Under the pieces are notes generated by a model that saw only the letters and a program-made list of their open reading frames with translations, was not told where the DNA came from and did no database searches. A DNA stretch of 64,000 nt from Cyanidioschyzon merolae. Its lineage: Eukaryota. The first letter of the stretch is position 1, and each line of letters starts with the position of its first letter. This document shows, piece by piece, positions 4,418 through 51,297 of the stretch. The DNA lies in assembly GCA_000091205.1 (NCBI GenBank), contig AP006493.2; one strand, written 5' to 3'. A program made the position numbers and the translations under genes.

Positions 4418-5003
4418 TTACAAACTCACGCCAAAATTGCACTGAACAGCACATGAGAGATAATCGATGCCGCTCGAAACGCAAGGCGTTCTCTCTTTGT
4501 GGATATCAAAGAAACGGGATTCTACAGCTGCATGATGTCCCGAAAGGGATGTGCTCCTAGAGGTTCCGGTCTCTTTTGTTTCCATACAAAATCGTTCTCG
4601 ACCCGGACTTGAGTCATCGCAGCGATCGCTTCCAGTGGAGAGGGCGTCATCGCTTTGCAACATGATAGTATAGACCGATCGAAATTTCTCGGTTTGCTCT
4701 CCAGCCCGAGGGCTCTTTCCGATGCTTGTTCGATCGTGGACGAAATCGCACCCCATAAATACCATTTTGAATGGAACAGCACGCGCTTGCGCGTGCCACA
4801 GACAGCGTACATGTCGAAGAAATTGCCCAGTGGGACCCCGTGGTCTTGAGAAACGGTACGGGGCGTTGAAACGGAGAATGGCACCAGTGATAGCGTCCTG
4901 TGCCCGTCAAGGGTATGTACTGAGTAACGCAGTAGGCGTTCACGCGGCACAAGTCAGCTCTGGTAGGCGGAGGTATGATTGACATGTAGTAACACACGAC
5001 CAC
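4418..5003 (+). pseudogene. degenerate fragment of a TnpB/Fanzor-like element (middle 'F.EWNS' block only)
   Basis: The + frame 4655..4849 gives 'KYHFEWNSTRLRVPQTAY', matching 'FIEWNSMHFRMLRTEY' of the 17.25-18.15 kb copy and 'AAWNSG...FRKFMEVRIAHWDALWEEY' of the 39.5-41.6 kb copy. The opposite-strand translations 'CCKAMTPSPLEAIAAMTQV' and 'LQSDDALSTGSDRC' match 'ACKAMTNSPTEANAAITQ' and 'LQSDDELSNGSERC' at 17651..18142. No intact RuvC-III follows. Confidence 0.3.
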
Positions 5004-5980
5004 AACCAGGTGTCACAGCCGCGAAGGACACACCTACGCTGTACATAAAGACGATGAACCTGGCAAGGGAAGTGTAGATCCTAGCCTCCCTCTGTGCATG
5101 AAATGCGGAGATAACAGCCGGCAGCAGCGAAATCAGGACTCTAACGCCGCCGTCAACATACCGTGACTGCTGACAACGGAACTGGACGGACAGGAGAGAC
5201 CGACTAATTTCAGGCCGGTGCTTTCAGAGAGCGAAAAAAATTTGTCAAAGAACAAGCCCACAAATGCTGGTGTTCTTAACTGTGGAAAAAGATCCAAACT
5301 TTAGCTTGTACGCTCGTGTTAGAGTAAATGTTCCATTTTATTCTGACGTAGGTGTCGATGATCGACGAGCATCCGCTGAAAGTTCCACGATAGTGCAGAG
5401 CCTCGATCCGGTTGTAGTCCAGGGCGAAAGCATGTGGGGGCTCGGAATCCAATCAAAGACTTTGTGTCGTTACCACTGATGCGTGTTCCCATGGTGCACT
5501 GTAGGTGCGTCTTATCGGACTCCCAGGGATAGCTACCAGCTGTCGATAAGCAGCGGTAATACCATCGTGTACCCACGCACGCTCTAGAGAATCCCGTGCG
5601 CCTCTGATCCACATGCCAACAAAATTGCGAGAAAAAAGTGAACAATTTTCTACTGGTGCCAATAGCACTCAGAGATACGCGTCCAGCCATTCACCAGGAT
5701 AAGGTGCACAACGCGTTGCAGGGCGCTGTCGCGTTCCAGTTCCACGCTTGGAGCAGCCTCGAAGCACTGCGCCGCATTTGATGGCGCTTCGCGCGCCGAC
5801 TGGACGGTGCCGTTCCAACGCGCAGACGTTAGGGAGGGTCGCTCTCCGCCTCGACAAGCCGTACCCAGTAAACCTCTCGGGAGAGTTCCTTGTGCGAGAC
5901 AAAAGCTTACCTTACTCGAGATCCTTCGATTCGTACGCGGTAACCCGAGACGCTTCATAAGTGAAGTCTTGCTTTTCTCC

Positions 5981-7360
5981 ATGAACGGGTCAGGACCTGG
6001 GGTGCTCTCGGCAGCAGCGCAGGGAGCACAAGGCATCCGTTCGAGCACTGTTCACGTCATCGCGGCAACTGTTGGCATTGCTCGACTTCGTGAGGATGTG
6101 GCTGCCTACCTCGCAACAGACGCTGAGTATCGGCTACGTGAAATTATCCAAGAAGCAGGCAAGTTTATGCGGCACTCCAAGCGCAGGCGTTTAAAAACGT
6201 CAGACATAGCAGCGGCGCTGCGACTGCGAAACCTAGAGCCTCTCTATGGATTCAGCTCCAACGAGTCTGCACCTTTCGTTGGTGTGACACTGCCAGGAGA
6301 AAGTTCCCTGGGTGGAAGCAACACAGTCTACTTTGTAGGTGACGAGGAAGTAGACTTGCGAGATATCCTTGACGGTGAACTGCCGCGTGTACCTCTCGAG
6401 ACCACACTAGCGCTTCACTGGCTCGCAATTGAGGGCATACAGCCTAGAATTCCACAAAACCCTGCAGATGTTTCGAGTACGGCGCGACAGTCTTTGACCT
6501 ATATCCTTCGAGACACCGTGCACGATGAGCCAGGTCGAAACGCGTCGGATACCCCAGACACCGACACTGGGATGGTATCTTTTCGACCCAAAGTAAGGCA
6601 CGTTGTGTCGCGTGAACTGCAGCTGTATTACGAACTGGCTATTGAAGCATTGACTAGGAGCGCGCAGGAAACAGATGAAACGCTGCGGAATGCTTGCCTT
6701 GCCTCCATCGCGAGGGATCCTGGCTTGCAACAACTCGTGCCCTATTTTGTTGCCTTCCTATTCCACCATGTCTCGAACCATTGTCGCGATTTGCCACAGC
6801 TGCAGGTTTCCATGAAGCTGGCTCGGGCGCTCCTTGAGAATCGCTATGTGGGACTGGAACCATATTTGCATCAGCTGATGCCCTCCATCATTACTTGTAT
6901 TGTGGGTCGTTATCTGTGTCGCACTGCGGACGAGGATCATTGGACCTTACGGGAGAATGCTGCCTCGCTTCTCGCAGATGTTCACAAAATGTACGGTGGT
7001 ACCTACGAGAATCTGTTGCCTCGTATTGCAGAGACGCTGCGTCTTGCGTTAGTGGGTGAAGACAAAGCTCTTACTACACAGTACGGTGCTATTGTAGCAT
7101 TTCAGGAACTAGGTCCAGCTCTGGTAGAGGCACACATTGTGCCGCTTGCACCTAACTTGCTCGAAAGATGGGAGCGCAAGATCGAGCACGAGCTCGGTGA
7201 AGCGCCAATAAAATCAGCTGAGCTAGAGCTGGCAACGTCACCCAAGTGGTCAGAATTACGTCGTGTATATGCTGCTCTGGCAAAAGCGTTAGGCGTCGGA
7301 GCAGAAACCCTTGAGGCGAAGTATGGCAGCAAATATGCGCACTTCGTCATCCCTTCGTGA
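5981..7360 (+). CDS. TAF6: TFIID subunit TAF6 (histone-fold N-terminus plus HEAT/ARM-like C-terminal domain)
   Basis: The 517-aa ORF starts at 5807; an ATG at 5981 is the likely start. The N-terminal histone-fold region 'VHVIAATVGIARLREDVAAYLATDAEYRLREIIQEAGKFMRHSKRRRLKTSDIAAALRLRNLEPLYGF' matches the TAF6 pattern, and the C-terminal region 'LHQLMPSIITCIVGRYLC...HWTLRENAASLLADV' matches the TAF6 conserved domain. Single exon. Confidence 0.65.
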   Translation: MNGSGPGVLSAAAQGAQGIRSSTVHVIAATVGIARLREDVAAYLATDAEYRLREIIQEAGKFMRHSKRRRLKTSDIAAALRLRNLEPLYGFSSNESAPFVGVTLPGESSLGGSNTVYFVGDEEVDLRDILDGELPRVPLETTLALHWLAIEGIQPRIPQNPADVSSTARQSLTYILRDTVHDEPGRNASDTPDTDTGMVSFRPKVRHVVSRELQLYYELAIEALTRSAQETDETLRNACLASIARDPGLQQLVPYFVAFLFHHVSNHCRDLPQLQVSMKLARALLENRYVGLEPYLHQLMPSIITCIVGRYLCRTADEDHWTLRENAASLLADVHKMYGGTYENLLPRIAETLRLALVGEDKALTTQYGAIVAFQELGPALVEAHIVPLAPNLLERWERKIEHELGEAPIKSAELELATSPKWSELRRVYAALAKALGVGAETLEAKYGSKYAHFVIPS

Positions 7361-11078: not shown

Positions 11079-14000
11079 AACATACCGACAGATATCGTTG
11101 GGCTTCAGCAAGCCCGCGGATTGGCGGCTCGATGGCACCGAACGCAGCCTCGTAAGAAATGTGCCAGGCTGATTGGCCACCAGGGCACTGATCGTGTTCT
11201 TGATTCCTGATCGTTGTCGAGGATAGATTATAGAGGAACTCCAGATGCTTTTTATGTTCATACAGCGGTCTTGAGTGCCCTTTCAGTCTAGTCCGTGCAA
11301 GCGGATACTTGAGCTTTCGAAGCACCGCCACAAGCGCTAACTGACACACGCGCTACCCGCGGCACATGCCTTACCTCTCGCGGAACTTGATACGATTACT
11401 CCAATGGACTGCTTTGGCAGTGTTCACGAGAACTTTGGATTGGCTTTGAATTGGGTTAGAGCACGGCAGCGTGGAGAGCGCACGCGGAATCCCCGAAACT
11501 CACGGATGTCAATGTCCTGGCTAGTCGTTTATATGTACGTCGCATTCGCCCCGAGATACGGATTCGCGCGCCACTGATGCTTGCTGGTCACGTCGTTCTT
11601 TCGACGGATATTAACCTTGTTCCAATGAAATGCGCCTGCGCGAATCGGCGAGATCCAGGTTGCCACCAACGATTACGGAACGCAATGTGCTGATATCCCA
11701 GCTCTGGAATGCCAGGCATGGTTCGGCTTGTATGTAGAATCTACGGGAGATTAAGAAAGTTTTGGTAAAGCCCACGAAAGTGCTGCTGGAATCAAGCTCG
11801 CTGTCGCTCCTCCTTCCGAAAGTCATTCGCACTGGGTCCCGTTCTACGCAGCCTCACTGCAGTAGCTTCAGGTACCTCCTCACCCTAGGATCATTTGCGA
11901 ACCTTCTGTATTTATCTAGTACACGCTCTGCGGGTGAGTCACCTGAATCCAGATGCATTTCTGCATGGGAGTCGCCGTAGTCTGGCGACGCAACGAAGCG
12001 ACATCAGAATCCGACAGTGCATCTTGAGGCCACACATGCTCCAGTTGTCTGCGCACTGCGGTTCGTTCAATCGCTCAATGCCTTCCAGGTGTTGATAATA
12101 AACCGTCCGGATGACGCAGAGGAGACCGCACACATATCACTGAACAAAAGACCCCAATGTCTGAGTCTTCGCGTTGTGCTGAGTTGACGTGAGTGGCATA
12201 CGTTTTCGTGGGGTGAGTCGTCCTTTCTCTTTGCGCATTGCGCGCGTTTCGCAAAAACAGGACTAGTTCGCCTCTGTGTACACGGATTCCTTCACTTAAA
12301 CCCTTTCCAATCCATACATATTGTGAGAAATACTGGTGAGGAAGCGATACATCGAAGAGGTTCCGAACAGCTGATAATGACGGCGATAGACCCGGATGAA
12401 CAAAGAAACAAGCACGTTTCTTCGAGAGATCGTCACTCGTTCAACAGAACACGTCCAATCTCGTACTGATATCCAAAACTTGTTGCGACACAGACTTGTG
12501 TTTTTGTCTCTTGATCAAATTTCGTTCCCATCAAACTGTATCCCTGTATATTGGCACTCGAACACAAAAACACTACTGTTCCTAAAGAAGAGACAAGGGA
12601 CCAAAACGACTGCAATTGCCCTGCAGGCCATTCAGTAGTGCGTTCGCCTACGATTTGCAATACGAACTAAATGTAAATATACATCGTGCTTCGTAGAAGC
12701 ACTTCGTGGCTTCTGATTTCCACATTCTTCTGACCTGCACGTAGACCGTGCCACTTTCCGTCACTCTCAAGCGGGCAAGGAGCGCGCTGCAGCGATTGGC
12801 GTTGAGCGGCTCTTGGTGCCAGGCTACTACCCCTGGTTCCGTCGACTCAAATGCGTCTTCTCGCGAGTGAAAGGAAACATCGAAGCGCATGGATCCATCG
12901 AAGGGTCGTTTGAATCCACGACACCCAAAGATGCACGACGCCATGAAGAATCGCGTAGCGTCTTTCTCATGGAAGGCGCATATGGCTTATCTCTCCCCAG
13001 CGTGCATCAGTATGCAACAGTTCGTTGGAGAGTTCCGGACGCTGGGATGCTATCTGTCTCAATTCGTCTGGAATTTTTCGACGAAGCATTTTTGCTAAAA
13101 TATGACGGGTGCTCGGGACGGAAGATACAATACGGGCCGAGCAGAGGATCAGATATTCGCTTCAAACGCTCACCAGGGGGTTGCGACGCGTCGCCGTGCC
13201 GTGTTGGCGATCGGGGTATCGAAAGCGCAGGCCCCGGAAACTCTCATACCAACATTTTTGACCAAAAGCATACGTGGGTCAATGCCGAGTGCTTCATGGA
13301 ACGTACCCATGGGCGTCCTTTGCGTATCCTGCTGAGCGTGATCAGGGAGAACTGATGACTGGGATTTCCGGCTGTCTCGATGGACGCAAATGACAAGCTG
13401 GTGGCGGCAGTGATCGATGCGGTAGCACGTGCGGAAGCGACATCGCAAAGACAGCAAGAGTCTCCCGAGGTATTCCATGCGTATTGTCTGGAGCTCGGCC
13501 TCGGACCGACGGACGTCGTATCCAGGGGATTGTTGGGAGGCCATGCTGCGTTCTTTACGCCTTGCGCCATTTTGTGTGCCTTGACGGAGACCGGCATAGC
13601 ATAGCAGACTCGTTGCTCGAACGCAAGCGCCCAAGCCTTGTCACGCGTCTATCGATATATAGTTCCCATGTATCAAACCGAGGCCCGTTGGATCATAGGA
13701 GGCATGTGTATGGTGTAGGTACTCCCCACTGAGGCTCGATTGGTCTTTGCGAGCGAGCACAAAGCTTTCGTGCAACATCGCGGAGACCATTAGCTGAGCT
13801 CATGCACAGTTTCTCGCTTCCGCGGACGAAATGGAAAGAACTTGACGAGGGCCATGGAGACCGACGGAATACGAGTCTGCGCGTACTTCGTGAGATTCGG
13901 TAAATCTAGTCCAGATGCGAGCAACGAGACTCGTCCTCAACTGCGCAATGTCGACGAAGAGAAGGACTTTATGTAGAGCGTGGATCCCATGCTCAGGGGG

Positions 14001-15394
14001 GTCGTGGCTCTCGCCATGACTGTTAAGCAAGCGGAGGATGCCGAATACCTGAAAGAAAAGGTAACGAAGCTGTTTTCGTTCCCCAGGGATCGATACGGTC
14101 TTGCGTCAACCCTGACAGACACCTGGATGCATACCAATACATGAAACGACGGAATCAAGAGCAATCTCGACGTTCCGGGCATCGTATCGAGCTGAAGCAG
14201 ACCCTCCGTGCGCTTCTTTCAGAGAGTACGCCATACCAAAAACGGCTCGCACGCATGTTCTTTTAGTAGAAGTACGTGAGACTCTGTTGGGGTTACTTAA
14301 CGTCTTGGTTGTACGAAGGCAAGAAGTGTATATTCGCAAACTTGCTCAAAGAGCTGGAAGAGGAAATGATCGGTTCATTGCGTTATCTGTTGGTCGCCTT
14401 TGGCGCTAGAGGTGCTGTAGCGTGCACGGGTCGGGTTCCTGCTTTTATAGAGAAGGTCGTCGAACGAGTGCAGGAATCGATTCTGTGCCATTCTCGTGGA
14501 TGCCTCTAGGACGATGTACGCGGATCACGAGCGGAAACTTGCGATGGAAATTGGTACAGGAGCAAGTGCGAAACAGAGACGGATGGACGAGACGGCGTGC
14601 GTGACGCTCTCCGTACGCCAGATGGCGATGCAATCCAATGGAGGCGGCTTGCTGTGACGTGACTCCACTAGCACTGACGCGCATGTGCACGCCTTGCATC
14701 GAGGCCTGACCGCAGTCATCGAATTCCCGGCAATAATTCGTGCCTCAGGAGCGTCCATCAGCTTTTTCTCTAGCAAACTTTCGAGATAATCGTTTAGCAC
14801 TTCGTGCGGGCAGTGAAATGAAACATTACAGGTTTTTGATGGAAAACCAGTGACCCTGAGAGAGCGATCTGATTCTTGCCTGGAGCAAAGCACTGGTATG
14901 GTACTGGTCAGCAATCTGGCAAGGCTGGAACGCAGTATACATACACAGAGAACTGTTTTTCTGTGCAAATGTCGATCGTTAACAGTTTCCCGTTATTCAA
15001 TATCACTAGGTATATTCGATAAAAAAGGGATCACCGTTCAAAAAAGCGAGGATTTCCCGCAAACATTCCTCGGCTGCAAATTGCATGGGCAGCACATGAA
15101 CTGCATCCGATACATGCAGACCGGCCATCTGAGCGATGTACACGTTGTCTATGCGGGCGTATCGAAGATCGAGCGCACGCATCAACCATTTGAGCAAGTT
15201 TACCACCAGGACGCCGTGATCTCGTTCATGCAAACAAGACGGACCAGACGCACGCCGACCGGCCTCCTCCGCGATCCCCTCGTTCATGCGTCTGCACGTC
15301 GCGGCTGAGAAGATCTCATAGACTACGACCGAGCAAAACCCCGTGTCACCTGAGATCAACAGTCGCGCGTCTGGACGTCCCGGTTGATGCGACC

Positions 15395-17250: not shown

Positions 17251-18142
17251 TTAGAACAGGCCCACTAAACCAGGCGTGCGTGCTAACGTTTTTGTTCCTT
17301 TTGCGGGGTTATCAACAACGTGCTTTGTGGGAACGTTTTGCGACCGCTTCCTGTTCCCCCTCTCAAGGCCGGCTTTGTCTGCGGAAGCCGGTTTCTCCTT
17401 TCCCCCCAGTACCGTTGCTAGCAGTCTAATGATGTTGATTGGAGCGTTAAAGTCCCGATTTCGAGGGTTCCAGATCTTGCCTACGCGTCTGATGCACATG
17501 CGGAAGTTGCGATCTACACTTCGCTTGCCTTTTGCATCTGCTTTGAGCATGGACTCGGCGCGCACTGTGCAGCGCTGACGCTTGGCTGTGGTCCGGTGTT
17601 TTCATATATGCAATACACCATGTCCCTAGCCTCCTTCCTCAAGGGTCGCCTTGCAGCGCGTAAACCATTGCTTCATCCCTCGGTACATACCCTTGACTGG
17701 CACAGAAGGTTCGTGTGGATGCCTTGCACCGTTTCGTACCAGGCTCTGTTTCGTGTGTGATCACGCGCTTTCTCTGGGCGATATCTTCGGCGAGTACTCT
17801 GTCCGCAGCATGCGGAAGTGCATGCTGTTCCACTCGATAAAGGGCTTGAGGAAACCGATCTTGTCCATGACGAAACAAGGACCCGGAAAGAAAGTCCAGG
17901 CTCCAGAAAAAGTAGAGAAGATTCGATCCACCTTTACGCTCTTTGCTTGCAAAGCGATGACGAACTCTCCAACGGAAGCGAACGCTGCGATTACACAAGG
18001 CGGAGTCCAAGACCTTTCTGCACACAAACGGATGACACAGAAGCCACTGGAAGCATACCTGCGAGGCGCATCATGCTGCTGTCGGGTGCTGCTTTGTCGA
18101 TGCCTTGAAACAGGGAACGATTTGTCTTCCAAATGGCGTTGA
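17251..18142 (-). pseudogene. degenerate TnpB/Fanzor-like gene copy (F.EWNS block, RuvC-II-like and RuvC-III-like blocks in three different frames)
   Basis: Minus-strand ORFs, 5' to 3': 17761..18132 'FIEWNSMHFRMLRTEY'; 17639..18025 'ADRVLAEDIAQRKRVITHETEPG' (RuvC-II-like); 17251..17565 'CIRRVGKIWNPRNRDFNAPINIIRL' (RuvC-III RD.NA..NI). The frame changes between blocks indicate decay. Confidence 0.45.
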
Positions 18143-19059
18143 TTGTTTGACTTGCCAAATTAAGTGTGGTTGCGGCATGGGTTTGTGAACATCTCGTCAA
18201 GAGACGACGTCAATTTTATTTGCCCCGCCAATCCAGGGGCTCGAATTGCTGCGCCCGCGAGTTACAGTGAATTACAAACATGGGTAACTTGAAGAATGCG
18301 TTATTTGAGCGCGCGAGACGCGAGGAAAGGAGTAACGCGAAGGCTTGTACGTGTGAATCGGATACTGGTATTGGTCACCGTATGAAATCTTGTTCGAGGA
18401 CGTCGAAAATCGCCTCGATGCGGATGACGTACAGAATTCCATCGGGCGCGCGTCGAACGAACCGTTCCGAGCGGACGACCAAGCATCCGAACCCGACACG
18501 TGCATCCCTATGCACTCATTGCTTCAGTTGGCATGTAGAGGCTCCAAATTTATAAAAAAAAATTCCGAAAGATCGACTGCTAGGAACTGAGCGAGTAGCT
18601 GAGCGTTCCATTTGCGTCTCTCAGAAGACTGAAAGCATTGACAGCGCTCTGGATCCGTGGATAACCGTCATCGCCTGCGAGATGAAAGCAATGCATTCCT
18701 CCTTGCTGTGAGGTCGGACGCTCACAACGTCACTGGAGCGCCCCCTGAGCGGCCATGCGTGAGTTGCACGCATTTTTTCAGCTTTATTTGTGTCAGCGGA
18801 GTCGGCAGATACGCCCTCTGCAGGGACCTACACGGTTCGCCTTGTTTCCAGAGAAGAACTTTTACGATCTATACTGACTTGTAACGTTCGATAGCGCACA
18901 GAAAAGAGACTGGAATCATCGCGCAGCAGCTCCAGCGCAAACCTACGCTGTACCCGATGACGACCCAGGCAGATAGGCAAAGCACGTCACACACAAACGC
19001 AGCGGCAATCTAGAGCATGCCATCGCTGGCGCGCGTGTGGAGATTCTTCACGATCACTG

Positions 19060-19060
<1 letters not shown>

Positions 19061-19092
<32 letters not shown>
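19061..19092. repeat. (GGC)n trinucleotide microsatellite
   Basis: About 10 uninterrupted cggcgg units, visible directly, just upstream of the CCHC-protein gene. Confidence 0.9.
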
Positions 19093-19093
<1 letters not shown>

Positions 19094-20698: not shown

Positions 20699-20738
20699 GC
20701 TGCTGCTGCTGCTGCTGCTGCTGCTTCTGCTGCTGATG
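20699..20738. repeat. (GCT)n microsatellite in 3' flank of the CCHC gene
   Basis: gctgctgct... about 13 units, seen directly. Confidence 0.9.
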
Positions 20739-27323: not shown

Positions 27324-28348
27324 TTATTTCATAAACAGCATATGCATGACAGTGGAGCGCAAAAATATCCGCGAACATGTAAGGTACTTATTTACCCGCG
27401 CACAGACGCCTCCCAGCCTCTTTTGACAGGCCAATTGCTGTCGTTTCAGCTCCTTTTTGTACAATTTGAGTCTGAGAAGCTGGTCGAAAAGGCTGGACCG
27501 CATCAGATCCGCGAGTCTCGGCATCAGCATCGCACATCGTCTGATATCGATGGCGGCGTTCAAGTCTCGGTTCAGAGACTCCATGATTTTATTGACGCTG
27601 GTTGAACTCACCAATGCAATGATTGCTGCGGCCTGTGCACTTTGCGAGACTGCAGTCACGTTATCGGCTCGTCGGGCAGATTCCTTTCCCAGACGATAGC
27701 CACTGTTCGATTGCATCCTCTTCGTCACTCGCGATTTATCGCTGGATGGTCGGCGACGAGAGAATTTTTTGTCGAAATCCGAGATACCGGGCCTCCAGGA
27801 CCCTCAACTTCGATGCCCATAGGCGTCCACTGGATTTTTTATTTCTTCAAAATGAACGCATTTGTTGATTCCCTCAGGTGCGGAGCTTCGCGGAGCAAGA
27901 AGGACCCTCTGAAGAGAGATGCAATGTGCCCTGGTCTGTCAAAGAGTGCTCAAAGCTTCAGCGATTCGCTCAGTTGAACGATCAGTATGTTTTACGATAG
28001 AAAACACTCTTTCGATACGGTTGAATCACGGTGGGCATGTAGGAATGAAAAGCAGCTCTATCCCTAGAGAATGAGCAAACGCACGAGCGCAATCGGACTG
28101 GTCGAGTGCCACATAGTCCAGTTGAAGGATGTCTCCAGATTTCACGTGAAAAGTTCTCAATGATTCGTCAAAGTGGTTTGTGCTGCTGTACGAGCGCTCT
28201 CTACGAGCGAAACTGAGTCCGTTACTTGAATCCAGTGCAGCTCGAACAGAGGACGATGTCGTCGTCCTTTTCGAGTTCGCTCATACACACAACGGGCGCC
28301 CAGCTCCGCGAGTGCCCATATGCGCTCCGACCGTTTCATCCGGAGCAT
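27324..28348 (-). pseudogene. degenerate TnpB/Fanzor-like copy (RuvC-II-like block at about 28.2 kb, RuvC-III block at about 27.5 kb)
   Basis: 28157..28348(-) 'ERIWALAELGARCVYERTRKG' aligns with 'ADRLLAEAINRTKTLVVEFGNG' and 'ADRVLAEDIAQRKRVITHETE' of other copies. 27324..27728(-) 'SVNKIMESLNRDLNAAIDIRRCAML' closely matches the RuvC-III 'HRDLHAAINIRKCAVL' of the 39.5-41.6 kb copy. Confidence 0.4.
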
Positions 28349-29049
28349 GTATCATCGAGTAGGACGAATGCGCTGTCGTCCTGCAAGAAGGATGTGCACT
28401 TCAGTGCGAAATCGACAGTGTGTTGTTCAGTGCGGGATTTTCTCTGTTAGAAGCGTGCTTTTTGTTTGTTCCTCCGTTTCTCTTCATTAACGGTCGTATC
28501 AACGGTACGCAATCTTCAGATCCTGTCGCATATTTGGTAATATTTTGTAGACAAGGCGTGGAGTGGAATGGATTGACAAGAAGAAAAATTTTTCGGCTGC
28601 GTCGAGTACATTCGGATTTGGTTGCGCGGCGTTCACGATTCGGCGTACGAGAAGCGTAAATCACTTGCCAGCTGACCGTCGCATATCCGTTTTGGACAAG
28701 TAAGACGATTTCCGCAAGGCAGCTGTGGTATCATAAAGTTTTTCTGTGACCTTTATCGAAGCTCTCGTCTACGTTGGGTTTGTTGAACGCCTGCTAGAGA
28801 AACGAAGGAAAATCGAGAATGGCTCGGTGATACATGTAGTCCAGAAATCACTTTTCTGTGTATTACTGCCCAGCATTGGCCATGCGTTGCCAAGGCGCTC
28901 CGTCGAAATCCTTTCGTATCAGCATGGAATTGAACGGGTTTACCTGGCGAACCCGGGCGAATACTCTAAAATGATGGTGACTTCCCAGAGTCACGAACGA
29001 CAGTCCTCACGCGCCTTTTCTACGATTGCTTCCTGTTCCTCTCGCTTAT

Positions 29050-29577
29050 TTACCGCTTGAAATACACCAGAATCTCTTTCCCCTCAGGTCCCGTGGTCAG
29101 CGGTAGAAGGATCTTGATAAGAGTATAAAAGTCCCGATTTCGCAGTTTCCGGCCTTTGACGACGCATGTCGTGCACTGGCAGAAGTCGCGGTCTAAGCCT
29201 CGCTCCAATTTCAATTTCTTTCCGGACAGCATTGGCGAGCCCTTCACAGCGATGGCACCTGAATCTAGTCAGGTATTCTCGTGTGCCGACCATGCATCTT
29301 CCGTCTGGCGCCGCCCTGAGACAAGTGAACGCTTGCTTCATCGCACCGTTCATGCGGTTTCGGGGTAAAGGGGGTTCCCCTCGATGCCGTATTCTCCGTG
29401 TCCGCTTCCGTTGCCAAACTCTACAACGAGGGTCTTGGTCCGGTTGATCGCTTCGGCGAGTAGCCTGTCCGCAGCACACACAAGCGCACGGCGTTCAATT
29501 TGATGGGGAATATGTGGAATTCGATAATTTTTCACGATGAAACATGTACCGGAAGGAGTGCCCAGGCTGGAGATCAA
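29050..29577 (-). pseudogene. degenerate TnpB/Fanzor-like copy (RuvC-II-like, CxxC, RuvC-III-like blocks; frameshifted, stop inside)
   Basis: 29350..29577(-) 'ADRLLAEAINRTKTLVVEFGNGSGHG'. 29084..29479(-) 'TREYLTRFRCHRCEG' (zinc-finger remnant). 29050..29247(-) 'CQCTTCVVKGRKLRNRDFYTLIKIL' (degenerate RD.NA..NI). Confidence 0.35.
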
Positions 29578-30754
29578 GTCGAGAGATTCGGATCCGTCGA
29601 CGCTGCTTCCGTGCTAGACTGTTACGCATTCTCGATGGGAACCAGTAGCCGAGGTGGCTCAAGTCCGACTCCAAGACCGTTTTTTATGGATGCAGAAGAG
29701 ACTGGAGTTTTTGGGAGCAGAACCCGGAAGACGTATCTTGCTGGTGTCGAATTCTGTTTCTTTGGCGCCCACAAAAATAAAAGGATCTGCGTTTCAAACG
29801 GGATCGATTATTTTGCGTGAGCTGTTCAGTGCAGTTTCGGCATGAGCTTCTAAACAATTCGTCGAAAGATAACGTCGTGTGGTTTGTCTCGCCAATGCAC
29901 CTGCGCGAATAGCGGTGCCTACGAGTTGCTTTGGAGCAGAAAGATCGAAAAATCGTCGAATGCGTTTTTCGAGCATGCTGTGCCTGAGGCATCGAGAAAA
30001 TTGCAGGCGCATACCTATGCATTGGATTCTGAAATCTGTTATTTTAAGAACCATTGTTCGATGGCGTCGTTAGTCAACTTGCTTCCGATGACCTATCGCT
30101 TTCCAGCTTCAACGAGAGGAACGAACCACTCCGAAGTGGCCACCCAGACTCCCGTGACCAGCTATGAATACGTAAGCCCTTATTGATTCACGTCAAATGT
30201 CAAGGCTGTATATCAAAAACAACTTCGGAAAACTACCAAGGCAGAAATAGTTCGAGCTCTGGTATGATCCATGTTCTTGGGACGCAGGTGTAGGTCACGG
30301 CACACCCGGTGCCGCGCAGGCGCCATGGATCCGAAAGCGATGCGGCTGCGTGCGTGCACGCGCGACTCGACAGGCGTTTCCCGCTTTGTAGATGCGCGAG
30401 GCGGCCGCGCATCGGATTTTCAACTGCCAGCCGCGGCGTCGAGCGATCAACGTTCGTATGAGCGCCTGCGTTTTCTTGCGACTGCATTTCCCAGCGTTCG
30501 GGTTCGGGGTATCCGCGCTGCACGATAGGCAGTTCGGTTTTATAGGAGGCGTTGAATGGAGCCGCAGCCTCGATCCTGAACCTGAGTTGCGGTAACGCCG
30601 GAATATTGGTTTGACGGTCCCGCTGTGCAACTGCTTTCCAGAGAACGTGGCTCTAAACGTGTACCCACAGGTTGCGGCTTGCGCGCCAGGCGTTTCCGGT
30701 GACAAGTCAGGCGGGTTCTTGAGTTGATAGCCTTCGGTTTTGGCAGCGGTAGCA

Positions 30755-38150: not shown

Positions 38151-39495
38151 TAAAGATTTGTATGCACGGCTTTTCGGATCTACAGCGCTGTGAGTAGGTG
38201 ACTGGGTTTGGTGGCAGCTTTCTTGAGTTCCCGCTGGGGGTGCCCTTTCGGGGGATGACTTGTGATGGGCTCGTTTGGGAGTTCTTCTTTCTATTCTTCT
38301 GTTATTTTTTCTTCTTCTTCTTCGGGCTCTTTCCTGAGCTACTTTCTCTGGTTACTCTTCTGGCATGTGGATCATGATGCCATTGTGTCTTTTCTTCTGT
38401 ATCCCGTTGGGCCTTTTTCGCTAATATAGATTCCTCGACTTGTATCAGTTTTTCATTACTGTACTGGTAATTCGATATCTCGTCGTCTAGTATCGAGGCT
38501 ATCCCACAAATATTCCATGATGCGAAACCTATCGAGTCGTAGCGCGTAAGGGAATAAGAATAGCGCTGCGGTACTCCAGAGATACGTTGTCGATTTAGAT
38601 GCACCCTCCACGGGGTGTGTGAACGCACATGCCACCAGCGCCTCCTGCATTCCAGTCGTTCACTGAGTGTCTGCTGCAGCGCTAGCGTAGAATCAGATGT
38701 ACATTAGTCAAGGTCGATTCAAATGCGACCTTTATCTTGCCGGACGTGTGAAGCTACCCGCAACCACAGGGGATACTCTATGAACCACCCTTTCAGCGGC
38801 TTCGTATCCGCTCCCCAAATACACAGGCGGGCAAGTCGCTTACTCCACTTTCGACAGCGAACATGCTGCCAGCCGTCTTCAAAAGTAGCCGCCGAAATTG
38901 TTTCCAAAGTTGAGGTAGCTACCCAAGGTAGGAGGTAAAACTGAGCCCGAGTTCGAGGATGGATCCAGGATTTGCGCCCGAACCTGCAGCGTTGTTTCGG
39001 GAGTGGCGGATGACTACCCAGAACTCTCGTCATCATTCTCTGCTGCTATTGCCGCCGCCATCCGTTCGATGCGGTCAAGGTCCCTGGAGAGGGCTTCCTT
39101 CCTCGTCGCCCGAGCACCCCGCGTTAACCCACTTTCAGAGTTTCTCCGCAAAAACCGGACTTCTTAGGCGCGCATACTGTATGGGGCTTTTAAGATAGTT
39201 GTTCTTTAATAAATAATTTGTTACTAGTTTGCATCACGCTCGGTGAGCGCACCTCGGAGATCCGGCAGGCATGAGACGCTACGCGTATGTCGCCGTTGAA
39301 GGGGAACGCGATCCTGATCTCTAGTATGTAGATCTAATGTAAAAGTTGTATTTTCGTTAACTTCATAGCCAAGTACAGTTTTTCAGTTCGTTTTTGTTTC
39401 AAACTTCATACAAGTCTAGTCAAGTGTTTTTTTGCAGTATATAACAGAAGCGTTCACAGAGCGTTGTTTTCCAAAAAAACTAAAAAAGGAAAGTT

Positions 39496-41570
39496 ATGAA
39501 AACGCAAGTCGACGATCCTGGAGGCCCAGGGTCGCCGGCTGCCAGAAAAAAACAAAAAACAGTACCGAGTCCAGAAGAAAAGAAAGAGAAGAAGAACCGA
39601 AACGGGGACCCAACGTCGAAGGCGACAAGAAAGACGACTTTACGACGAGATGGTGGTGAAAACCTTTCTTCTTGGACATATCAAGGATCCGTACAGGGAA
39701 AAGTTGCGAGACGTTATCGAAATACGTGTCGACTCGTACTCCAAGAGTATTGTCAAGGCGTCGTCAGGACTGATGCATTTGGCGAGGGAGATGTATCGCG
39801 ACGTGACGGACATGGAAACGGTCGAGATTCCAGGCGAGTTCTTCGACAAGGCCTTTATTCGTCACGTGATGCATGGCACAGAGGAAGCGCGGAAGGAAAA
39901 ATGAGCTAGTGCATGCCCACCACGAAAACTTCGCGGAATTCTGCTTCGAGAGTAATCGATACAGCGGTGACGGAAATATTTACACATACGGGGTAATGAA
40001 GTACATTACGAACCTGAAGAACCATTTGACAGAGAACCTCGAACGTTTTATGATACGCGCCGTAGTTGCACTCTACCCGGGCCTCTCTCGCAACGGAAAA
40101 TGGGCGATTATCAATGGCATCAAGAACGATCGATAGTATGAAGATGAGGTCGAATTCGTCGACAAGAAGGCGTCACGCAGGAGCACGAATGAGGATTCCG
40201 TCATCCGCGCGGTTATACAAGAGCACCGTGCGGTACTGGGGTTGGCAAATCCAACAGACAAGATATCAGAGTTGAAAAAAGATAAGGAAAAATACTATCG
40301 CCTCGTCCTGCGCTATTTCGTGTTTCTGGATCGAGAGCTCGAACGCAAGGCGGAAATGAAGCTGAATGTAGAGACAAATGAAGAGTGGGAGAGACGGAAG
40401 GCTTTCCTAATGAGTAAGTGCCTCAGCGTCGTTCCGTTATGCAATATCCAGTCACATTTCGTGATTATCGACTCCACAGTCCTTCATGGCATAATGAGGG
40501 ACATCAGTCCGGTGTTCAATGTTAGCAGGGAGGACTTCACCGGCGAAAATCGGGAGACGTACTAGATGAGTATCTTCGATTTCAAACGTATCAAAGTCAG
40601 CAGGCAAAAGTTGTTCACTAGGATGATCGAAACCGATGGAGTAGCCATGTGTGTACACGATCGGCGGTTGAAGAAAGATCGTCCAGTTCCGCCCTCGGCT
40701 GCGCCCATCACGAAGGATGAAGAAAAGGAACAGGCGGATCCTGTGACGCAGGAGGTGCAGGACAACGACTTTGTTGTTTGCGCGGACCCTGGGAATACGA
40801 ATATCATAACCATTGCAGCACCGAAGCGTGCAGAAGATGGTACTGACGGCAACTTGCGTCAGAAAGACATGCGTCTTTTGAGGTTCTCGAGAGCGAGATA
40901 CTATCGAGAATCCGGTATAATGAATGCGAGGAAGAGAATTGCTGCATGGAATTCAGGAATGAAGGATCACCTGGAAGCTTTGAGCGAGGTGACGAGCCGA
41001 GGAGCGGACTTTGAAGCTTTTCGGAAATTCATGGAAGTTCGCATTGCGCATTGGGATGCGCTATGGGAGGAGTATACCAAGCCCCGGTGGGCTCGTTTGC
41101 GAATGAATCTATACGGTGGGAAGCAGCGGGCGTTCGCGAATTTTTTCAATGAGTTGAGTGCCCTCAAGGAGGATGAAAGTCAGAGGCCCGTAGTAGCATA
41201 CGGAGCAGGGCGCTGGAAGACCCAAAAAGGGACTACTCCAGCTCCAAAGACGAGGGTGTACAAGGAGTGTGCACGGCGTTTTGTTACATTACCTGTAGAT
41301 GAGTTCCGAACGTCCCATACACACCACGAGCTGGATTGTACACTTCAGAGGGTCGAAATGGAAAAGTGCCAGAGGAGCACTGAGGAAATACCAAAGTACG
41401 GTGCGCTGACGGAGGAGCAAATGTAAAGGAGGGCGAAAGTTCGTGGACTACTCGCACTGGTGAGTACAACTCCCAACGGCACGAAACGTATGGAGTTTGT
41501 GCATCGTGACTTACATGCCGCTATCAATATCAGGAAATGTGCGGTGCTGGAGAAAAGACCTCCAGAGTAG
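39496..41570 (+). pseudogene. Fanzor-type (eukaryotic TnpB-like) RuvC nuclease gene, most complete copy; reading frame interrupted by 2 frameshifts and 3 in-frame stops (or unrecognised introns)
   Basis: 39496.. 'MKTQVDDPGGPGSPAARKKQKTVPSPEEKKEKKNRNG' (NLS-like). From 39650 the frame changes twice. The final frame then carries '[18 protein letters not shown]' (RuvC-I, GxDxG-like), 'QRPVVAYGAGRWKTQKG' (RuvC-II region), 'VDEFRTSHTHHELDC...EKCQR' (degenerate Zn finger) and 'MEFVHRDLHAAINIRKCAVL' (RuvC-III). In-frame stops lie at TAG 40134-40136, TAG 40563-40565 and TAA 41424-41426. The last is supported by the ORF track (40242..40565 and 40566..41426 are contiguous, same frame). Confidence 0.65.
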
Positions 41571-41781
41571 ACACGAGAGAGTTTTGTGGGACACCCTCTC
41601 AAAGTGGAACTATATGAGAAGAAGTTGAAACCAGTAGTAGGTGGCCGGTCCAAAACGACGGGGAGGCCTCTGCACGTCAATTGGAGACTTCTTGTCCAGG
41701 GCGCGGTTGCTGCCACTACTGGACACCGCTGGCGTCGTTCGACTTTCGATCGGTGCGCAATCGCGGCAGCGTCTCGACAGT

Positions 41782-44737: not shown

Positions 44738-47700
44738 AAGCGTCTGGTTGAAAGCAGCGCCTCTGTCGTGCGGCGTCTGGCCGGTCGGTACGAACTTGTT
44801 TCGTTACATGCCACCGGCCTCTGAAAGAAACGCTAATGCATGTCGTGAATGCTCCGAGCCCGACTATATTTGTTGCGTTTCGCATGAGGTTGCATGATTC
44901 TTCCCTGCGGGCCGGCTTCGGTGGCATCATTTCCTTTTGCGGAACGCAGACCTGCGGTGATCTGAACAGCAATCTCGGGACGAACTGTACCATTGCTTGC
45001 ATTCATTTTTTCTCACAGGTATTGGACGACTGGAGTATATCGTGTAGATAGGAGAAAGGTTGCAGAATGGATTTATGCTTGAAGCGCTAGCCCGCGAACA
45101 ACGGTCTACTTGACCACTTCAGGTTTTCTACAGTCCACAGTTAGATGGACTGTCATTCTCGAGGTCGGTATTCTGAACGTCGCGCTCCCGAAACACAACA
45201 TGACAAATGCTGTCTGCACCTACGACTGGCTCCTCGCTGATCACTTCCATGCCACATGTCCTCTAAGAAATACTGCCGAATAAGCTAAAGGATGTGTTGG
45301 GCGCGTGCCACTCTTACGAACAGTGATGAAGAGACGCGGATGGACAACTGAACAAGCATGCTTGTATGGCAGACTGTCGCGCATTGCGCAACACACTACC
45401 GAATCGAAGTGAAGCACGAAAGCGTATGATAGTTGGGGCAAAAGTTCGTCTCATTGTATGAGACTTGATTCGGTCAACATGCTCGCCCTGTATATATGTG
45501 CCCAAAGGGGCAAACCGCTGTTCTTACAGAAGAAACATGCGAGGATGACCACAACATCAGCGCTAGCGGCGATGCTGTCGATTAATCGCCTACTTACCGG
45601 CAAACGCACAGGATCGTTCAACATTTCATCCGTCACCGCAGCATACCTTGGTTTCTTTTTCGTGCTTTCCTGAATACTGCTCGTAGGAAACGCCGCTGTC
45701 CATCATGGAACACAAGTCAAGTCGTACGCGACTGAGATTATTGACGTTGTGCTACTCGTCGTGACAGTCTATTTTCGCTCGTTCAATCGCGTCGAAGTTG
45801 TATATTTGGTCGTCAAAAACCATTTTTTACCCTGTAAGTTCAAGAATAGAGTCGTTTCCATCCCCACGGCACCAAATTTCTGTGCCATATCCTCCACTGA
45901 CGTCTCGCTGCCTACCGTAACCAGCTCCGAACTGCGGTCGTGCTTCTCTGCTAGTGCGCTGGACAGATCAAAGACGCTCGCTTCGGTCTATGGGCGTGCT
46001 CGGGACGGAGCAGTTGAATACAAGGTCCCTGATGAGCAGTAGATACATTCATCGAGAATGCGAGCTTCCGAGCCACCGTCCACCCCATGCTTCTGAATCT
46101 CAAGAAAAAATTGTCTGTAGCGTGTAGCGACCAAACTTATGCCACGCTACCAAGAAAACGAGAATGGAAAGATTCCAACAGACAACGAAGTGCAATATGC
46201 TTTCGAAAAGGGACGGCAACGTACATGAAGAAAAGCCTGTTGGGGCGGAAGGATTTGCCGCAAGCAGTTGCCACGAAATTCGTTCTATCACACATCTGCC
46301 AGGAGAATCTACGAAAAATTGAGGCACGTGACACCATGAAGAATCGCCAGGCTGCTCACTCGTACAAAGCTCGTCTGGCTTTTCTAGCTCTAACGCACCA
46401 CGTAAAGCAAGTATACATAGGAGTTCTGGGCGCAAGGCTACTACTTAGCCGCATTTCTCCGGAATTATTTGAGAAAACGTTCATGCGATGATACAGCAGA
46501 TGCATGGAACAGAGGATGCAAGACAACCTGATCGTAAGATACGAAATGTGCACACCTAAGCTTCCCAGCATACCGTGACACGTTGCCAGGCAGCGTCGGC
46601 GATCGCTGCGATGCCTGCCATCCGAGTCCAGGACTCTATTCCGTGTAAAGAGCAGAGACGTGAGCGTCGAGCAGCATATCGTATGAGAAATATATCATGC
46701 TGCCGTCGAATGCCGTTTCGCTGATAGCCGGAGCGATCGGTGGTGGAAACGTCTTTCGAACGGAATCCATCATTGAATGGTAGAAGTTCTGGGAACTTTC
46801 CTAATGGGTTCGCGAGCAAGTCCTCAAGAGACGACGTTGGGCATTTTTCCTCGTCAGTCCAGCGGTCTGCGTCGCTTCGCCCACAACTTGCGACCGAAAG
46901 ACCGAAAAATGAAGCATGCGAGGTTTGAGCATGCTACCTGTAAGGGAACGAGAAGATTCCAGACTCGTGCGTATGCAGTGGATAATAGTATCGGTGCAAT
47001 GACCAACCCGTGTTCGAAGGCGTCGCGAATCATCTTGATGACGATGACGCAGCAAAGTCCAGCGGTACAGTGTCGAACGAGCCACTCCCTAGAGACTTCG
47101 GAGATTCCTGAAATCCGCATATACATTCGTAAGCTCTTGTTGCTGTGCTTCGCATACCCATGCCGCACAGCTATACAAGTTCGGAGACTATCGAAAAGCA
47201 GGAACATATCGGGTAATTGAGCGTTCCACTCTAATCCGACACACTTGCAGCGCACCTAGCTACAGGAACGCTTTTCCACCACAACAGCGGCGATGTTTGT
47301 ACGAAACCTGCACTCGTCTGCGATCCAGGAGCGACACCGAAATCGTGCGCTCGGAGCAAGGCCTCGGAGGAGAATCATCCCTGCCAGAGATCCGTGACGC
47401 TGCTCCCTACCGAACAAGACGTAGCAGTTCGCGTCATGTCCGGAATGCTGTAGCAAGTATCGCGATGATCGCTTCCTACGGTTTGTTGCAGTGCATTCAG
47501 GTTCAAGGAGGCTCAGCACGCATCCTCAAGGTTCACTTCAAGCGTGCATGTTCCATGTCATCGTATGTGAGGCAACGCTCAGTACGCAGCCGAAAGCTCA
47601 AGAACAGCCATCCAAGCAGGCATTGCTCAACGGGCGACAACAGACTCCAATGCATTTCACGGGGTTCCGTTCTTGGACGCTTCGGTGCAGGGATATGGAC

Positions 47701-49822: not shown

Positions 49823-49825
49823 GGC

Positions 49826-51297
49826 TCACCACCCAGCGCTACAGCTTCTGGTGCACTGCAACAGCTTCTGGTGCACTGCAACAGCTTCTGGTGCACTGCA
49901 ACAGCTTCTGGTGCACTTCAACAGCTTCTGGTGCACTTCAACAGCTTCTGGTGCGAAGCGCAAGCACGAAGGGCGCTTGTACTGAGCGTTCGCCGGCGAT
50001 GATCCGGGGCGCCGGCACGCCGCATGAAGAGGTGCTCGGGTGGATCGCGGGATACTGCACCTATGGCTGGAGTGGGGATCTGACGCCCGTGAAAGAAATT
50101 GGACCTGCATAACCACCCAGACGTTATAGATGAGGACAACGATACATGTTTGATGGCCATGGAGGGTGAATATGTATGTATTTACGCGCAGAGGCCTCGC
50201 AGCCTTTTTTGACTGGCCGCCTTCGATCAGTTTCAGCTTCTCGTTGTATCCGATGAGCCTGAGAGGCTGCCCAACCAAGTCACATCGCGTCAGCTCTTGG
50301 GGTATCGTTTTCAGCACCGCACATAGCCTGATATTGAGTACAGCGTTAAAATCCCGGTTCACGAACATCTCGCGTTTATAGCCTCTGTTAGAACGCGCCA
50401 TTGCAAAGAAAGCTGGAACTCGTGCCCTCATTGCCATTTGGTGCTCAGTCAGCTCTCTGTCATTTTCTATCGCACAAGCGATCCACTGGCGTGTCTCTAT
50501 GCCGGCCGTCTGAAGTGCATATGCCCGCTCGTCCCAGAGATTTTTTAATCTTTGAAAGCGGCCGCACTTGTACACACCCATAGGTGAGGAACTTCTCGGA
50601 AAGACAAGGATTTACGCAGGATAGACGAAAGATGCTTCGGTGCTACCGTGGTGGAAGCTTTTGCGATTCGCCCATCGGAGCTATTATGATATGTGTCATG
50701 ATAGAAAACGCTCCTTCTATAGATATGGACCTCGGAGCCTAAGGAGGAATGAAAAGCAGCTCTGTCCCCGATAGAATCAGCAAAAGCTCGAAAGAGAATG
50801 TTGAAAGGCCACGGTGTCCAATAGATGCACGTCGCAAGAAGTCAGAGAACAATCTTCCATGATTCGACGAGTTGGGAGCTAATGTATACGCCCTCTCTAC
50901 GAGAGAAACTGAGGCCGACAAATGCATCTACCAAAGTTCGAACAGATGATGATGTCGGTGCTCTCTTCGAGTTCGTTGTACGTACAAAGAACTCCGTCTC
51001 TGCGAATACCCGTATACGCTTCGACCGTCTCATCCGAGGAAAGTATGATCGACTGAAAAAAAACAACCGACGTTCCTGTGCTTCATGCAGATCGCAACGT
51101 TCCAGGAACACTAGAGTTGCGATTTCGATGGACCATGACCGGGTGTGAACCAGGACTCTTTTTATGCGACTGTATCCGAGTGCTTTCAGGGCTGCACGAA
51201 CAAGATCTTGAGAATCAGAAATGCCACTGCTGGCTATGATCATCGCTTTCGCTTTTCTTACGATGATCAACGGGTCGTTTTCTACCATTGACCGCAA
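49826..51297 (-). pseudogene. degenerate TnpB/Fanzor-like copy (RuvC-II-like block at about 51.1 kb, zinc-finger remnant and RuvC-III block at about 50.3 kb)
   Basis: 50842..51297(-) 'VRAALKALGYSRIKRVLVHTRSWS' (RuvC-II-like). 49826..50581(-) 'GVYKCGRF...REMFVNRDFNAVLNIRLCAVLK' (RuvC-III). The antisense-frame signature 'STAHSLILSTALKSRFTNI' (50166..50381+) matches the antisense of the 39.5-41.6 kb copy ('STAHFLILIAACKSRCTN'). Confidence 0.4.
49841..49953. repeat. 20-bp minisatellite (acagcttctggtgcactgca) x about 5.5
   Basis: Units align exactly with the 10-base print groups, with the last copies c->t variants. Lies between the SerRS ORF and the TnpB-like remnant. Confidence 0.9.

Follow-up and report, generated by a model that had tools for sequence, protein, structure and literature searches.

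Decayed Fanzor1 loci and adjoining mariner-type transposase remnants in a 64-kb stretch of Cyanidioschyzon merolae chromosome 11

Fanzor1 proteins, the eukaryotic descendants of TnpB, are RNA-guided RuvC endonucleases, and the guide RNA of TnpB and Fanzor is believed to come from the 3' end of the gene, beside the right end of the element. The DNA analyzed here, called the window below, is a 64-kb nuclear stretch of chromosome 11 from the red alga Cyanidioschyzon merolae 10D (~55% G+C). It very probably holds ten remnants of DNA transposons with Fanzor1 cargo: one solo copy of the published element CMe-1A and nine Tc1/mariner-like composites or derivatives of such composites.

The Fanzor1 family of this genome was already described in 2013. 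According to that account, C. merolae has one Fanzor1 family, CMe-1A, with ~150 copies that are each ~80% identical to a 3,169-bp consensus (Bao and Jurka, 2013, Mob DNA 4:12, PMC3627910). CMe-1A encodes a 734-aa protein, has no terminal inverted repeats (TIRs), was assigned to the class 'unknown' with target-site duplications (TSDs) undetermined, and is decayed in most copies; its 5' 635 bp correspond to another repeat, TE-N2_CMe, and no transposase is mentioned for it (PMC3627910). Mariner/Tc1 elements with Fanzor1 were described in the same paper, namely PUl-1 and PUl-2 from Pythium and PGv-1 from a Phaeocystis virus (Bao and Jurka, 2013, PMC3627910), and an association of Fanzor1c with Mariner/Tc1 has also been reported (Jiang et al., 2023, PMC10530073). 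The window differs from the published account of CMe-1A in having a mariner-type transposase remnant upstream at nine of ten loci, and in four loci that belong to a second Fanzor1 lineage.

The ten Fanzor-related loci span 4.1-63.9 kb and cover ~18 kb of the 64 kb (~29% of the window). In the following list CMe-1 is the published lineage, while P0057 and P0058 are proteins of the second lineage, which is mariner-borne.

Locus I (B1), 4090..5300, plus strand: internal-deletion derivative; transposase part ~4142-4843, Fanzor1 C-terminal part ~4828-5230.
Locus II, 12098..14925, plus strand: near full-length composite, heavily decayed; transposase 12242-12923, Fanzor1 (P0057-like) 12916-14823.
Locus III (B2), 17290..18520, minus strand: same deletion derivative as locus I; transposase frame ...VMDKIGFLKPFIEWNSMHFRMLRTEYSPKISPRE at ~17870-17770, then the Fanzor C-terminus.
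Locus IV (group C), 27403..28753, minus strand: transposase 27984-28753; CMe-1A-like piece of the 5' untranslated region 27783-27863; CMe-1-like Fanzor C-terminus and 3' end 27403-27650.
Locus V (B3), 28970..30180, minus strand: third copy of the group B derivative, with RNRDFYTLIKIL at 29107-29142.
Locus VI, 39247..41749, plus strand: solo CMe-1A copy without transposase; conceptual open reading frame (ORF) from 39496 to about 41700.
Locus VII, 45035..46606, plus strand: transposase 45035-45826; only the N-terminal ~110-165 codons of Fanzor1 at 46141-46606; 3'-truncated.
Locus VIII (group C), 50180..51516, minus strand: transposase 50697-51516, holding VRAALKALGYSRIKRVLVHT; CMe-1-like Fanzor C-terminus and 3' end 50180-50536 (NRDFNAVLNIRLCAVLK).
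Locus IX, 54851..57438, plus strand: transposase 54958-55747; Fanzor1 (P0057-like) 56111-57182, lacking ~290 N-terminal codons.
Locus X, 61302..63887, plus strand: second copy of locus IX, 98.5% identical and with the same inactivating lesions; left terminus at 61305.

A preliminary description of this sequence had recognized at least six copies of a decayed, once-active TnpB/Fanzor-like family lying among housekeeping genes. These loci are truly homologous and above chance, and the count is now ten: the loci at 12.1-14.9, 45.0-46.6, 54.85-57.44 and 61.30-63.89 kb had been omitted, the last two lying beyond the coordinates then covered. With the conceptual protein of the 39.5-41.6 kb locus as query, tblastn on the window gave matches at 27.5, 50.3, 13.7-14.4, 56.1-57.1 and 62.8-63.5 kb (E 2e-4 to 2e-12). 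Hidden Markov models (HMMs) of the family scored those loci at E 4e-9 to 1e-17, and ten shuffled windows peaked at 8.9 bits. In a DNA self-comparison the segments 4.1-5.2 (plus), 17.4-18.5 (minus) and 29.1-30.1 kb (minus) were mutually ~65% identical and form group B, 28.0-28.4 kb paired with 50.7-51.1 kb, 41.3-41.7 kb paired with 50.2-50.5 kb, and 54,851-57,438 with 61,302-63,887 formed a 2,588-bp pair of 98.45% identity (blastn). The nucleotide block AARTCCCGRTT under the RuvC-III codons recurs as reported, with three occurrences in the window against 0.11 expected. Stops and frameshifts run through every window copy and none is intact, which agrees with the earlier statement that every copy is frameshifted or truncated. 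The window has no functional element today, only dead copies. An alternative genetic code as the source of the in-frame stops was ruled out by the long standard ORFs of adjacent host genes.

Database searches showed that relatives of these loci are abundant in hot-spring metagenomes. Their intact proteins have 676-752 aa with a long N-terminal REC-like region, and L018, with a 747-aa ORF, is one intact copy; the relatives carry precomputed DUF8286 (PF26935) matches, and 12 of 67 members match the Pfam Cas12f1-like TNB domain. Searched against the PDB, the profile of the 67 family sequences reached PpFz1 (1.2e-19), SpuFz1 (2e-14) and GtFz1 (4e-4), in alignments that pass through DEFRT and NRD.NA. 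Pfam searches with single ORF fragments and with the conceptual protein gave no match, nor did phmmer with the single conceptual protein against the PDB; Fanzor1 was reached only with the 67-sequence profile. The fold comparison was done on the intact relative P0058, not on the decayed window copies. Its AF2/AlphaFold model (predicted local distance difference test, pLDDT, 87.6), which has the TnpB/Cas12-type fold of WED, REC and a split RuvC with an inserted zinc-finger/TNB domain, matched SpuFz, PpFz and GtFz over the full length (E 5e-18 to 4e-16, template modelling score 0.54-0.70), with Cas12f (4e-4) and Fanzor2 (1.5e-2) far below. By sequence profile and predicted fold, the family is Fanzor1. 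The core of the preliminary description holds. It had named two outcomes that would count against it, namely conserved blocks without significant alignment and an unrelated host family lacking an RNase-H fold; what was found are significant tblastn matches, HMM and hhalign matches above shuffled controls, and a fold and profile that match Fanzor1. The single Fanzor-only family that it proposed is replaced by one solo CMe-1A copy and nine mariner composites or derivatives, whose Fanzor1 parts come from no fewer than two lineages. On protein scores, loci II, VII, IX and X lie nearer to the mariner-borne P0057/P0058, and IV, VI and VIII nearer to CMe-1; between intact relatives the two lineages share only ~40% identity.

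The near-invariant residues in the family alignment A2 are D421-P-G, E592 (in DEFRT) and R658-D659 (in NRD.NA), and the canonical RuvC-II position reads VVAYGAG, without a Glu. Fanzors have a rearranged RuvC site in which the canonical RuvC-II Glu is replaced by an alternative Glu (Jiang et al., 2023, PMC10530073). As judged from the alignment, the acting glutamate of this family most likely sits in DEFRT. The solved Fanzor1 proteins SpuFz1 (8GKH), PpFz1 (9CF0) and GtFz1 (9CER) resemble P0058 in full-length fold, and are matched by the profile including DEFRT and NRD.NA. In them, too, another residue stands in for the canonical RuvC-II Glu and an alternative Glu is nearby; however, sequence identity is only 11-15%. 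The CMe-1 lineage has a zinc finger with degenerate cysteines (HH...C...C), while group B retains CxxC...CxxC. TnpB of IS200/IS605 and IS607 and also Fanzor2 share the split RuvC triad with this family, but ~300 extra N-terminal residues are present here and the partner transposase is of the DDE type instead of a Y1 or serine recombinase. Placement with TnpB/Fanzor2 (IS607-type) is contradicted by the length of the relatives compared with compact proteins of ~400-500 aa, by the DDE_3 partner and by the Fanzor1 fold as the closest one.

A Tc1/mariner-type DDE transposase remnant was found directly 5' of the Fanzor fragment, on the same strand, at nine of the ten loci. In intact relatives such as P0058, Fanzor1 lies directly downstream of a DDE_3 transposase and both genes are inside one pair of ~30-nt TIRs; those of L002-L005 are 30-31 nt long and 73-74% complementary. 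The CMe-1-like metagenomic copies L053/54 and L058/59 also have a transposase directly upstream. The transposase of the intact relative L003 matches DDE_3 (1.3e-25) and weakly HTH_Tnp_Tc3_2. As a tblastn query on the window it detected 45.0-45.8 kb (9e-21), 12.25-12.92 kb (4e-19) and 28.73-27.99 kb (1.5e-16), and more weakly 54.97-55.75 kb (1e-9) and 61.4-62.2 kb (7e-9), as well as 51.5-50.7 and 4.14-4.84 kb. The transposase motifs SLDET, LLDN..H.S and YSPWFNPIE could be aligned. Only the remnant of locus IV exceeded the Pfam DDE_3 gathering score in the window (29.0 vs 28.6 bits, E 1e-6), and the transposase HMM independently recovered 50.85-51.30 kb at locus VIII (E 1.4e-8).

The order of the two genes is that of PUl-1, PUl-2 and PGv-1, with transposase first and Fanzor1 second on the same strand. 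The intact relatives also resemble those elements in having TIRs of a few tens of nucleotides, a total length of ~3.6 kb and TA-compatible ends. Unlike in those elements, the hosts are Cyanidiales red algae, and the window copies are dead and mostly internally deleted, with TIRs and TSDs no longer demonstrable. L005 ends as T|TATAC...GTATA|A and loci IX/X start as ...GG[CA]|TATAAT; both are compatible with TA, in a comparison made without an empty site.

The transposase changes the reading of the three conserved blocks on which the preliminary description had built its family. All peptides that it quoted were found at or close to the positions given, and NRD.NA is a genuine RuvC-III motif; the other two blocks had been assigned wrongly. 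The block 'F.EWNS', taken as an upstream Fanzor block, sits in the reading frame of the mariner-type transposase remnant: in the transposase frame of locus III, VMDKIGFLKPFIEWNSMHFRMLRTEYSPKISPRE aligns with LLDNVSFHHSKIV...LLYVPAYSPWFNPIE of the transposase, and therefore 'F.EWNS' is transposase. The supposed RuvC-II block 'ADR[LV]LAE.I..' is mostly an out-of-frame reading of the transposase motif YSPxxxPxE, and its final residues ([LV][VI].[EH]) alone fall on the canonical RuvC-II strand (VVAYGAG). Its proposed variants ERIWALAELGARCVYE (28.3 kb) and VRAALKALGYSRIKRVLVHT (51.2 kb) are both inside transposase remnants. The antisense 'STAH...' peptide, said to occur in every copy, was seen at two loci only and is the reverse reading of conserved C-terminal codons.

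Five loci are internal-deletion derivatives (I, III and V; IV and VIII) that keep the transposase and the last 100-130 Fanzor codons. In group B (I, III and V) the RuvC-III motif reads 'RNQDSNAAVNI' at 5119-5160 in locus I and NRDFNAPINI at 17422-17460 in locus III, and locus I matched the L003 transposase in tblastn with 28.5 bits (E 0.002; reversed queries 0.73). When the 5' halves were stitched automatically in the transposase frame and joined by a fourth copy, from L001, their alignment matched the transposase in hhalign (96%, E 4e-9, score 68, 175 columns; shuffles at most 17.4); stitching in the wrong frame gave no match (score 16.9). The 3' half matched the Fanzor RuvC C-terminus (hhalign 94.5%, E 8e-8, score 65, 104 columns), compared with at most 24.6 for 60 column shuffles and 11.6 for the reversed alignment. 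This match is collinear through the VVAYGAG strand, PAP.TR, DEFRTT, the zinc-finger region and NRDFNAAINI. Taken singly, the group B fragments reached an insignificant 2.9-7.1 bits with the Fanzor HMM, the group B consensus matched that HMM in the RuvC-III motif only, and the group B profile had no match in the PDB. On these profile alignments, group B is read as a transposase that an internal deletion has joined to the final ~125 codons of Fanzor. The junction is common to all group B copies and therefore the deleted element was amplified afterwards. Aligning the upstream parts of groups B and C by eye with the middle of Fanzor ('TDGV..CVH', 'DPG', KQRAFANFFNEL) proved wrong, and those segments are transposase.

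The group C loci IV and VIII match the CMe-1A consensus at 68-74% over short parts. The internal deletion of locus IV corresponds to consensus 944-2862; this locus was identified by DDE_3, by transposase tblastn (1.5e-16), by the Fanzor HMM (4e-9) and by blastn to the CMe-1A consensus (70-74%). Locus VIII was identified by the Fanzor HMM (5e-17) and by blastn to CMe-1A 2739-3088 (68%), and is 68% identical to locus IV over the transposase part. Locus II was assigned by transposase tblastn (4e-19) and by Fanzor HMM and tblastn matches collinear with P0057 residues 152-675, its left limit (12098) being the extrapolated transposase start. Locus VII was assigned by transposase tblastn (9e-21) and by Fanzor HMM positions 13-109 (E 7.6e-5 and 2e-6), which correspond to P0058 residues 11-165.

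A left element terminus could be placed at loci IX and X. Both begin TATAATTATACAAC..., and the terminus at locus IX is TATAATTATACAACTATATCC at 54854; the terminus motif occurs twice in the window against 0 expected. It lies ~65 nt before the predicted transposase start, compared with 52 nt in the intact element. The search for element ends that the preliminary description had proposed yielded this left terminus, but no TIR pair at any window locus. A 91-bp tandem duplication (two copies, 90-94% matches) is present in the decayed Fanzor C-terminal region of both, at 56922-57103 and 63371-63552. Loci IX and X are direct repeats that bracket the nucleotide-sugar transferase CMK101C (58054-59367) and RRP36 (60187-61176), and are a possible substrate for recombination-driven deletion or duplication. 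The coding parts of loci II and IX/X are diverged (~25-30% protein identity to relatives); a non-coding 3' segment of locus II (14838-14925) is conserved, being 74% identical to 57268-57357 of locus IX, and is also found at 63717-63806 of locus X. It may be a conserved functional 3' region of the mariner-borne lineage.

Locus VI is the only locus with the identity expected of CMe-1A (~80% or more over most of the consensus). With the consensus taken from the supplement of Bao and Jurka (2013, PMC3627910), window 39,247-41,734 corresponded to consensus 660-3145 at 86.9% over 2.49 kb (blastn). The seven loci other than IV, VI and VIII had no DNA match to the consensus and are therefore not CMe-1A. 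Locus VI, the best copy, reads as one long frame broken by few lesions, and its conceptual protein matches the 734-aa CMe-1 protein. It carries the motifs CADPGN (RuvC-I), VVAYGAG (RuvC-II position), VDEFRTS (alternative Glu) and HRDLHAAINI (RuvC-III). Relative to the consensus ORF it has two frameshifting indels, -2 nt at 39,603 and +1 nt at 39,893, and four in-frame stops at 40,134, 40,563, 41,424 and 41,568. Contigs L014, L026 and L025 carry orthologous copies and are collinear with the window well past the element; therefore, this insertion is old and common to sister Cyanidiales. An upstream 'module' common to the window, L014 and L026 was considered as part of the element and rejected, being the orthologous flank.

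Unlike published CMe-1A, locus VI lacks the 5' 659 bp with the TE-N2_CMe module. The left boundary of 80 metagenomic CMe-1-like loci fell either at consensus 1-3 or at ~648-690, which makes the TE-N2_CMe part a separable module and the window copy a short one. Only 2 of the 80 have retained an ORF of 650 aa or more. A TE-N2_CMe segment occurs elsewhere in the window: 35083-35304, within 34971-36242, is 72% identical to CMe-1A consensus 84-298. The segment 34971-36242 abuts the Fanzor unit directly in L001 and is inverted beside another copy in L034, and a 302-aa ORF without Pfam match (35269-36177, minus strand) overlaps the TE-N2_CMe sequence. The CMe-1A core starts at about CGCGCTCGGTGAGCGCACCTGG and is joined to alternative upstream sequences, each common to several metagenomic loci, one type in L015, L021, L027, L056, L058, L063 and L091 and a second in L024, L034, L035, L046 and L074. 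These may be orthologous flanks of different strains, alternative 5' modules or preferred insertion targets. The Fanzor ORF contains, at 40711-40785 in the acidic/lysine-rich linker ahead of RuvC-I, a ~75-nt unit whose copy number differs at homologous sites in L001, L012, L013 and L015, and P0001 has several extra linker repeats (DNDF.VDA.KHEE...).

The left end of the CMe-1A core and its 3' tail are hairpin-rich and have no TIRs, in which the unit resembles the ends of IS200/605. Most of 40 distinct CMe-1A-like 3' ends have two stem-loops after the stop codon. In stem-loop 1 the stop-codon region pairs with a conserved CACUA box, and L078 lengthens both arms. The terminal hairpin occurs in two self-complementary versions, CGUUCGA/UCGAACG or CGUUUUUC/GAAAGACG, with compensatory variants (UUCGA/UCGAA vs UUUUUC/GAAAGA), and homology among the copies stops just past it. 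A z-score below -2 was obtained for 13 of 40 and 12 of 40 hairpin copies, compared with 0 of 40 for a coding control, 7 of 40 for a second coding control beside the hairpins and 2 of 39 for the flank. No Rfam family matched the CMe-1A 3' hairpins. Published Fanzor guide RNAs derive from the 3' region abutting the right end of the element, and the hairpins are suggestive, as a lead only, of a candidate guide-RNA scaffold. A long-range helix of the AGTAGTAGGTGGC codons with GCCACTACT was dropped, as inspection found no compensatory changes. Immediately past the terminal hairpin, a stretch of 10-20 nt is often G/T-rich (TTGTTGGTG, GTGGTGGTG, TTTGTTTCCAGGGG), e.g., in L061, L065, L088, L091, L001 and L012; a target preference could explain this, as could a final part of the element that is less conserved.

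Several results weigh against ten transposon remnants with Fanzor1 cargo or against a structured 3' tail. The TIR search around every window copy found short, probably chance pairs only and no right arm at any locus, a TA duplication could be demonstrated at no window copy, and the right edge of loci IX/X has no inverted match to their left terminus. CMe-1A itself has neither a transposase nor TIRs, and its link to mariner is carried by loci IV and VIII, both from a single deletion family, and by a few metagenomic copies. The z-scores of the hairpins are modest (mean -1.0 to -1.3, with one coding control also at -1.0) and about 0 in the window's own CMe-1A copy. RNAalifold on the raw MAFFT alignment of the 3' ends returned an essentially empty consensus without common structure, because the helices were out of register.

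A rival view is that all Fanzor fragments are ordinary CMe-1A copies whose adjacency to mariner remnants is a coincidence of nested or neighbouring insertions, with no composite at all. In its favor, CMe-1A is abundant and without transposase, the Fanzor parts of loci IV and VIII resemble it in DNA, and the window is dense in transposable elements and also has a retroelement. However, the transposase is immediately 5' of Fanzor on the same strand at all loci but one, a single TIR pair encloses both genes in intact relatives, and loci II, VII, IX and X belong to the mariner-borne lineage rather than to CMe-1. The group B junction, moreover, recurs in three window copies and in one from another genome, so that transposase and Fanzor tail moved as a unit. 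Coincidence is therefore largely refuted and we regard it as very unlikely. It is very unlikely that the group B loci are mariner remnants with a chance NRD.NA-like peptide and have no relation to Fanzor: their fragment HMM scores are inside the shuffled noise (up to 8.9 bits) and the frames of the Fanzor part were stitched by hand, but the collinear 104-column hhalign match far exceeded its shuffled and reversed controls, and B1 retains its Fanzor stretch in a single frame.

Loci IX and X may have arisen by segmental duplication of host DNA containing a dead element instead of by two transpositions, an origin that we consider somewhat improbable. Their right edge shows neither an inverted repeat nor TA, and all lesions are common to both copies, so no encoded protein could have acted; yet the left edge falls exactly at the transposon-like terminus, about as far from the transposase start as in the intact element, and on either side the flanking sequences are unlike each other starting with the first base. 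A host multigene family in place of mobile DNA might be argued from the CMe-1A copy kept at an orthologous position in sister Cyanidiales and from the long ORFs kept in few copies elsewhere. Such a family is extremely improbable, given the stops and frameshifts in every window copy, the scarcity of long ORFs among the 80 metagenomic copies, the location of copies at unrelated sites between different host genes, and a fold and sequence of Fanzor1 beside a transposase.

For the favored reading, DNA transposons with Fanzor1 cargo, the composite layout would be left end, DDE_3 transposase, Fanzor1, 3' region and right end. The steps that follow are drawn from established knowledge of Tc1/mariner and TnpB/Fanzor. 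An active DDE transposase would have moved the element by cut-and-paste, acting at the inverted repeats. Loaded with a guide RNA that was transcribed from the 3' end of its own gene together with the transposon end next to it, Fanzor1 would have cut matching DNA, and such cutting is thought to favor retention or spread of the element. Deletion derivatives with both ends may have been mobilised in trans, and group B would have been amplified at least three times after its deletion.

We suggest only tentatively, and with more doubt than confidence, that the 'unclassified' CMe-1 Fanzor1 of Cyanidiales descends from Tc1/mariner cargo. If so, the repeated survival of derivatives with the transposase, just the final ~100-130 codons of Fanzor and the structured 3' tail would mark this tail (candidate guide-RNA scaffold and right end) as what spread requires in cis. 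Solo CMe-1A, with its hairpin-forming ends and lack of TIRs, would then have ceased to depend on a transposase of its own.

These results matter mainly as a correction and small extension of a known family. A physical link between Fanzor1 and a mariner transposase is added in a genome where the class of the element stood open, which is a modest addition. Alongside it come a graded series of derivatives in which the 3' end survives every deletion and, from sister Cyanidiales, 40 copies for comparison that carry candidate guide-RNA hairpins. The genome of C. merolae is tiny and almost without introns, the alga can be manipulated genetically, and the few intact copies in it or its relatives could test the role of Fanzor for its transposon in the native host.

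The neighbours of the element loci are long, intron-free host ORFs on both strands. Host genes in the window include those for TAF6, a DEAD-box helicase, UDP-glucose dehydrogenase, aspartyl- and seryl-tRNA synthetases, acetyl-CoA synthetase, RRP36 and others, and the host ORFs BAM80483.1 and CMK101C showed exact protein identity to C. merolae 10D entries.

A ~3-kb block directly upstream of the CMe-1A copy (36242-39231) has no counterpart in the related contig L001. A minus-strand ORF within it (36779-37297) is a reverse-transcriptase remnant (Pfam RVT_1, E 9e-16), and the block is probably an inserted retroelement; AT skew is strong (-0.21) over the 36-38 kb interval. Trinucleotide runs, perfect or nearly so, are present at 19061-19092, (CGG)10.7, and 20699-20735, (GCT)12.3, the former just ahead of the start of a CCHC/RRM protein gene (19262-20641) and the latter just beyond its 3' end. 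A 20-bp tandem repeat (5.7 copies, 98% matches) occupies 49841-49954, between the seryl-tRNA synthetase gene and locus VIII.

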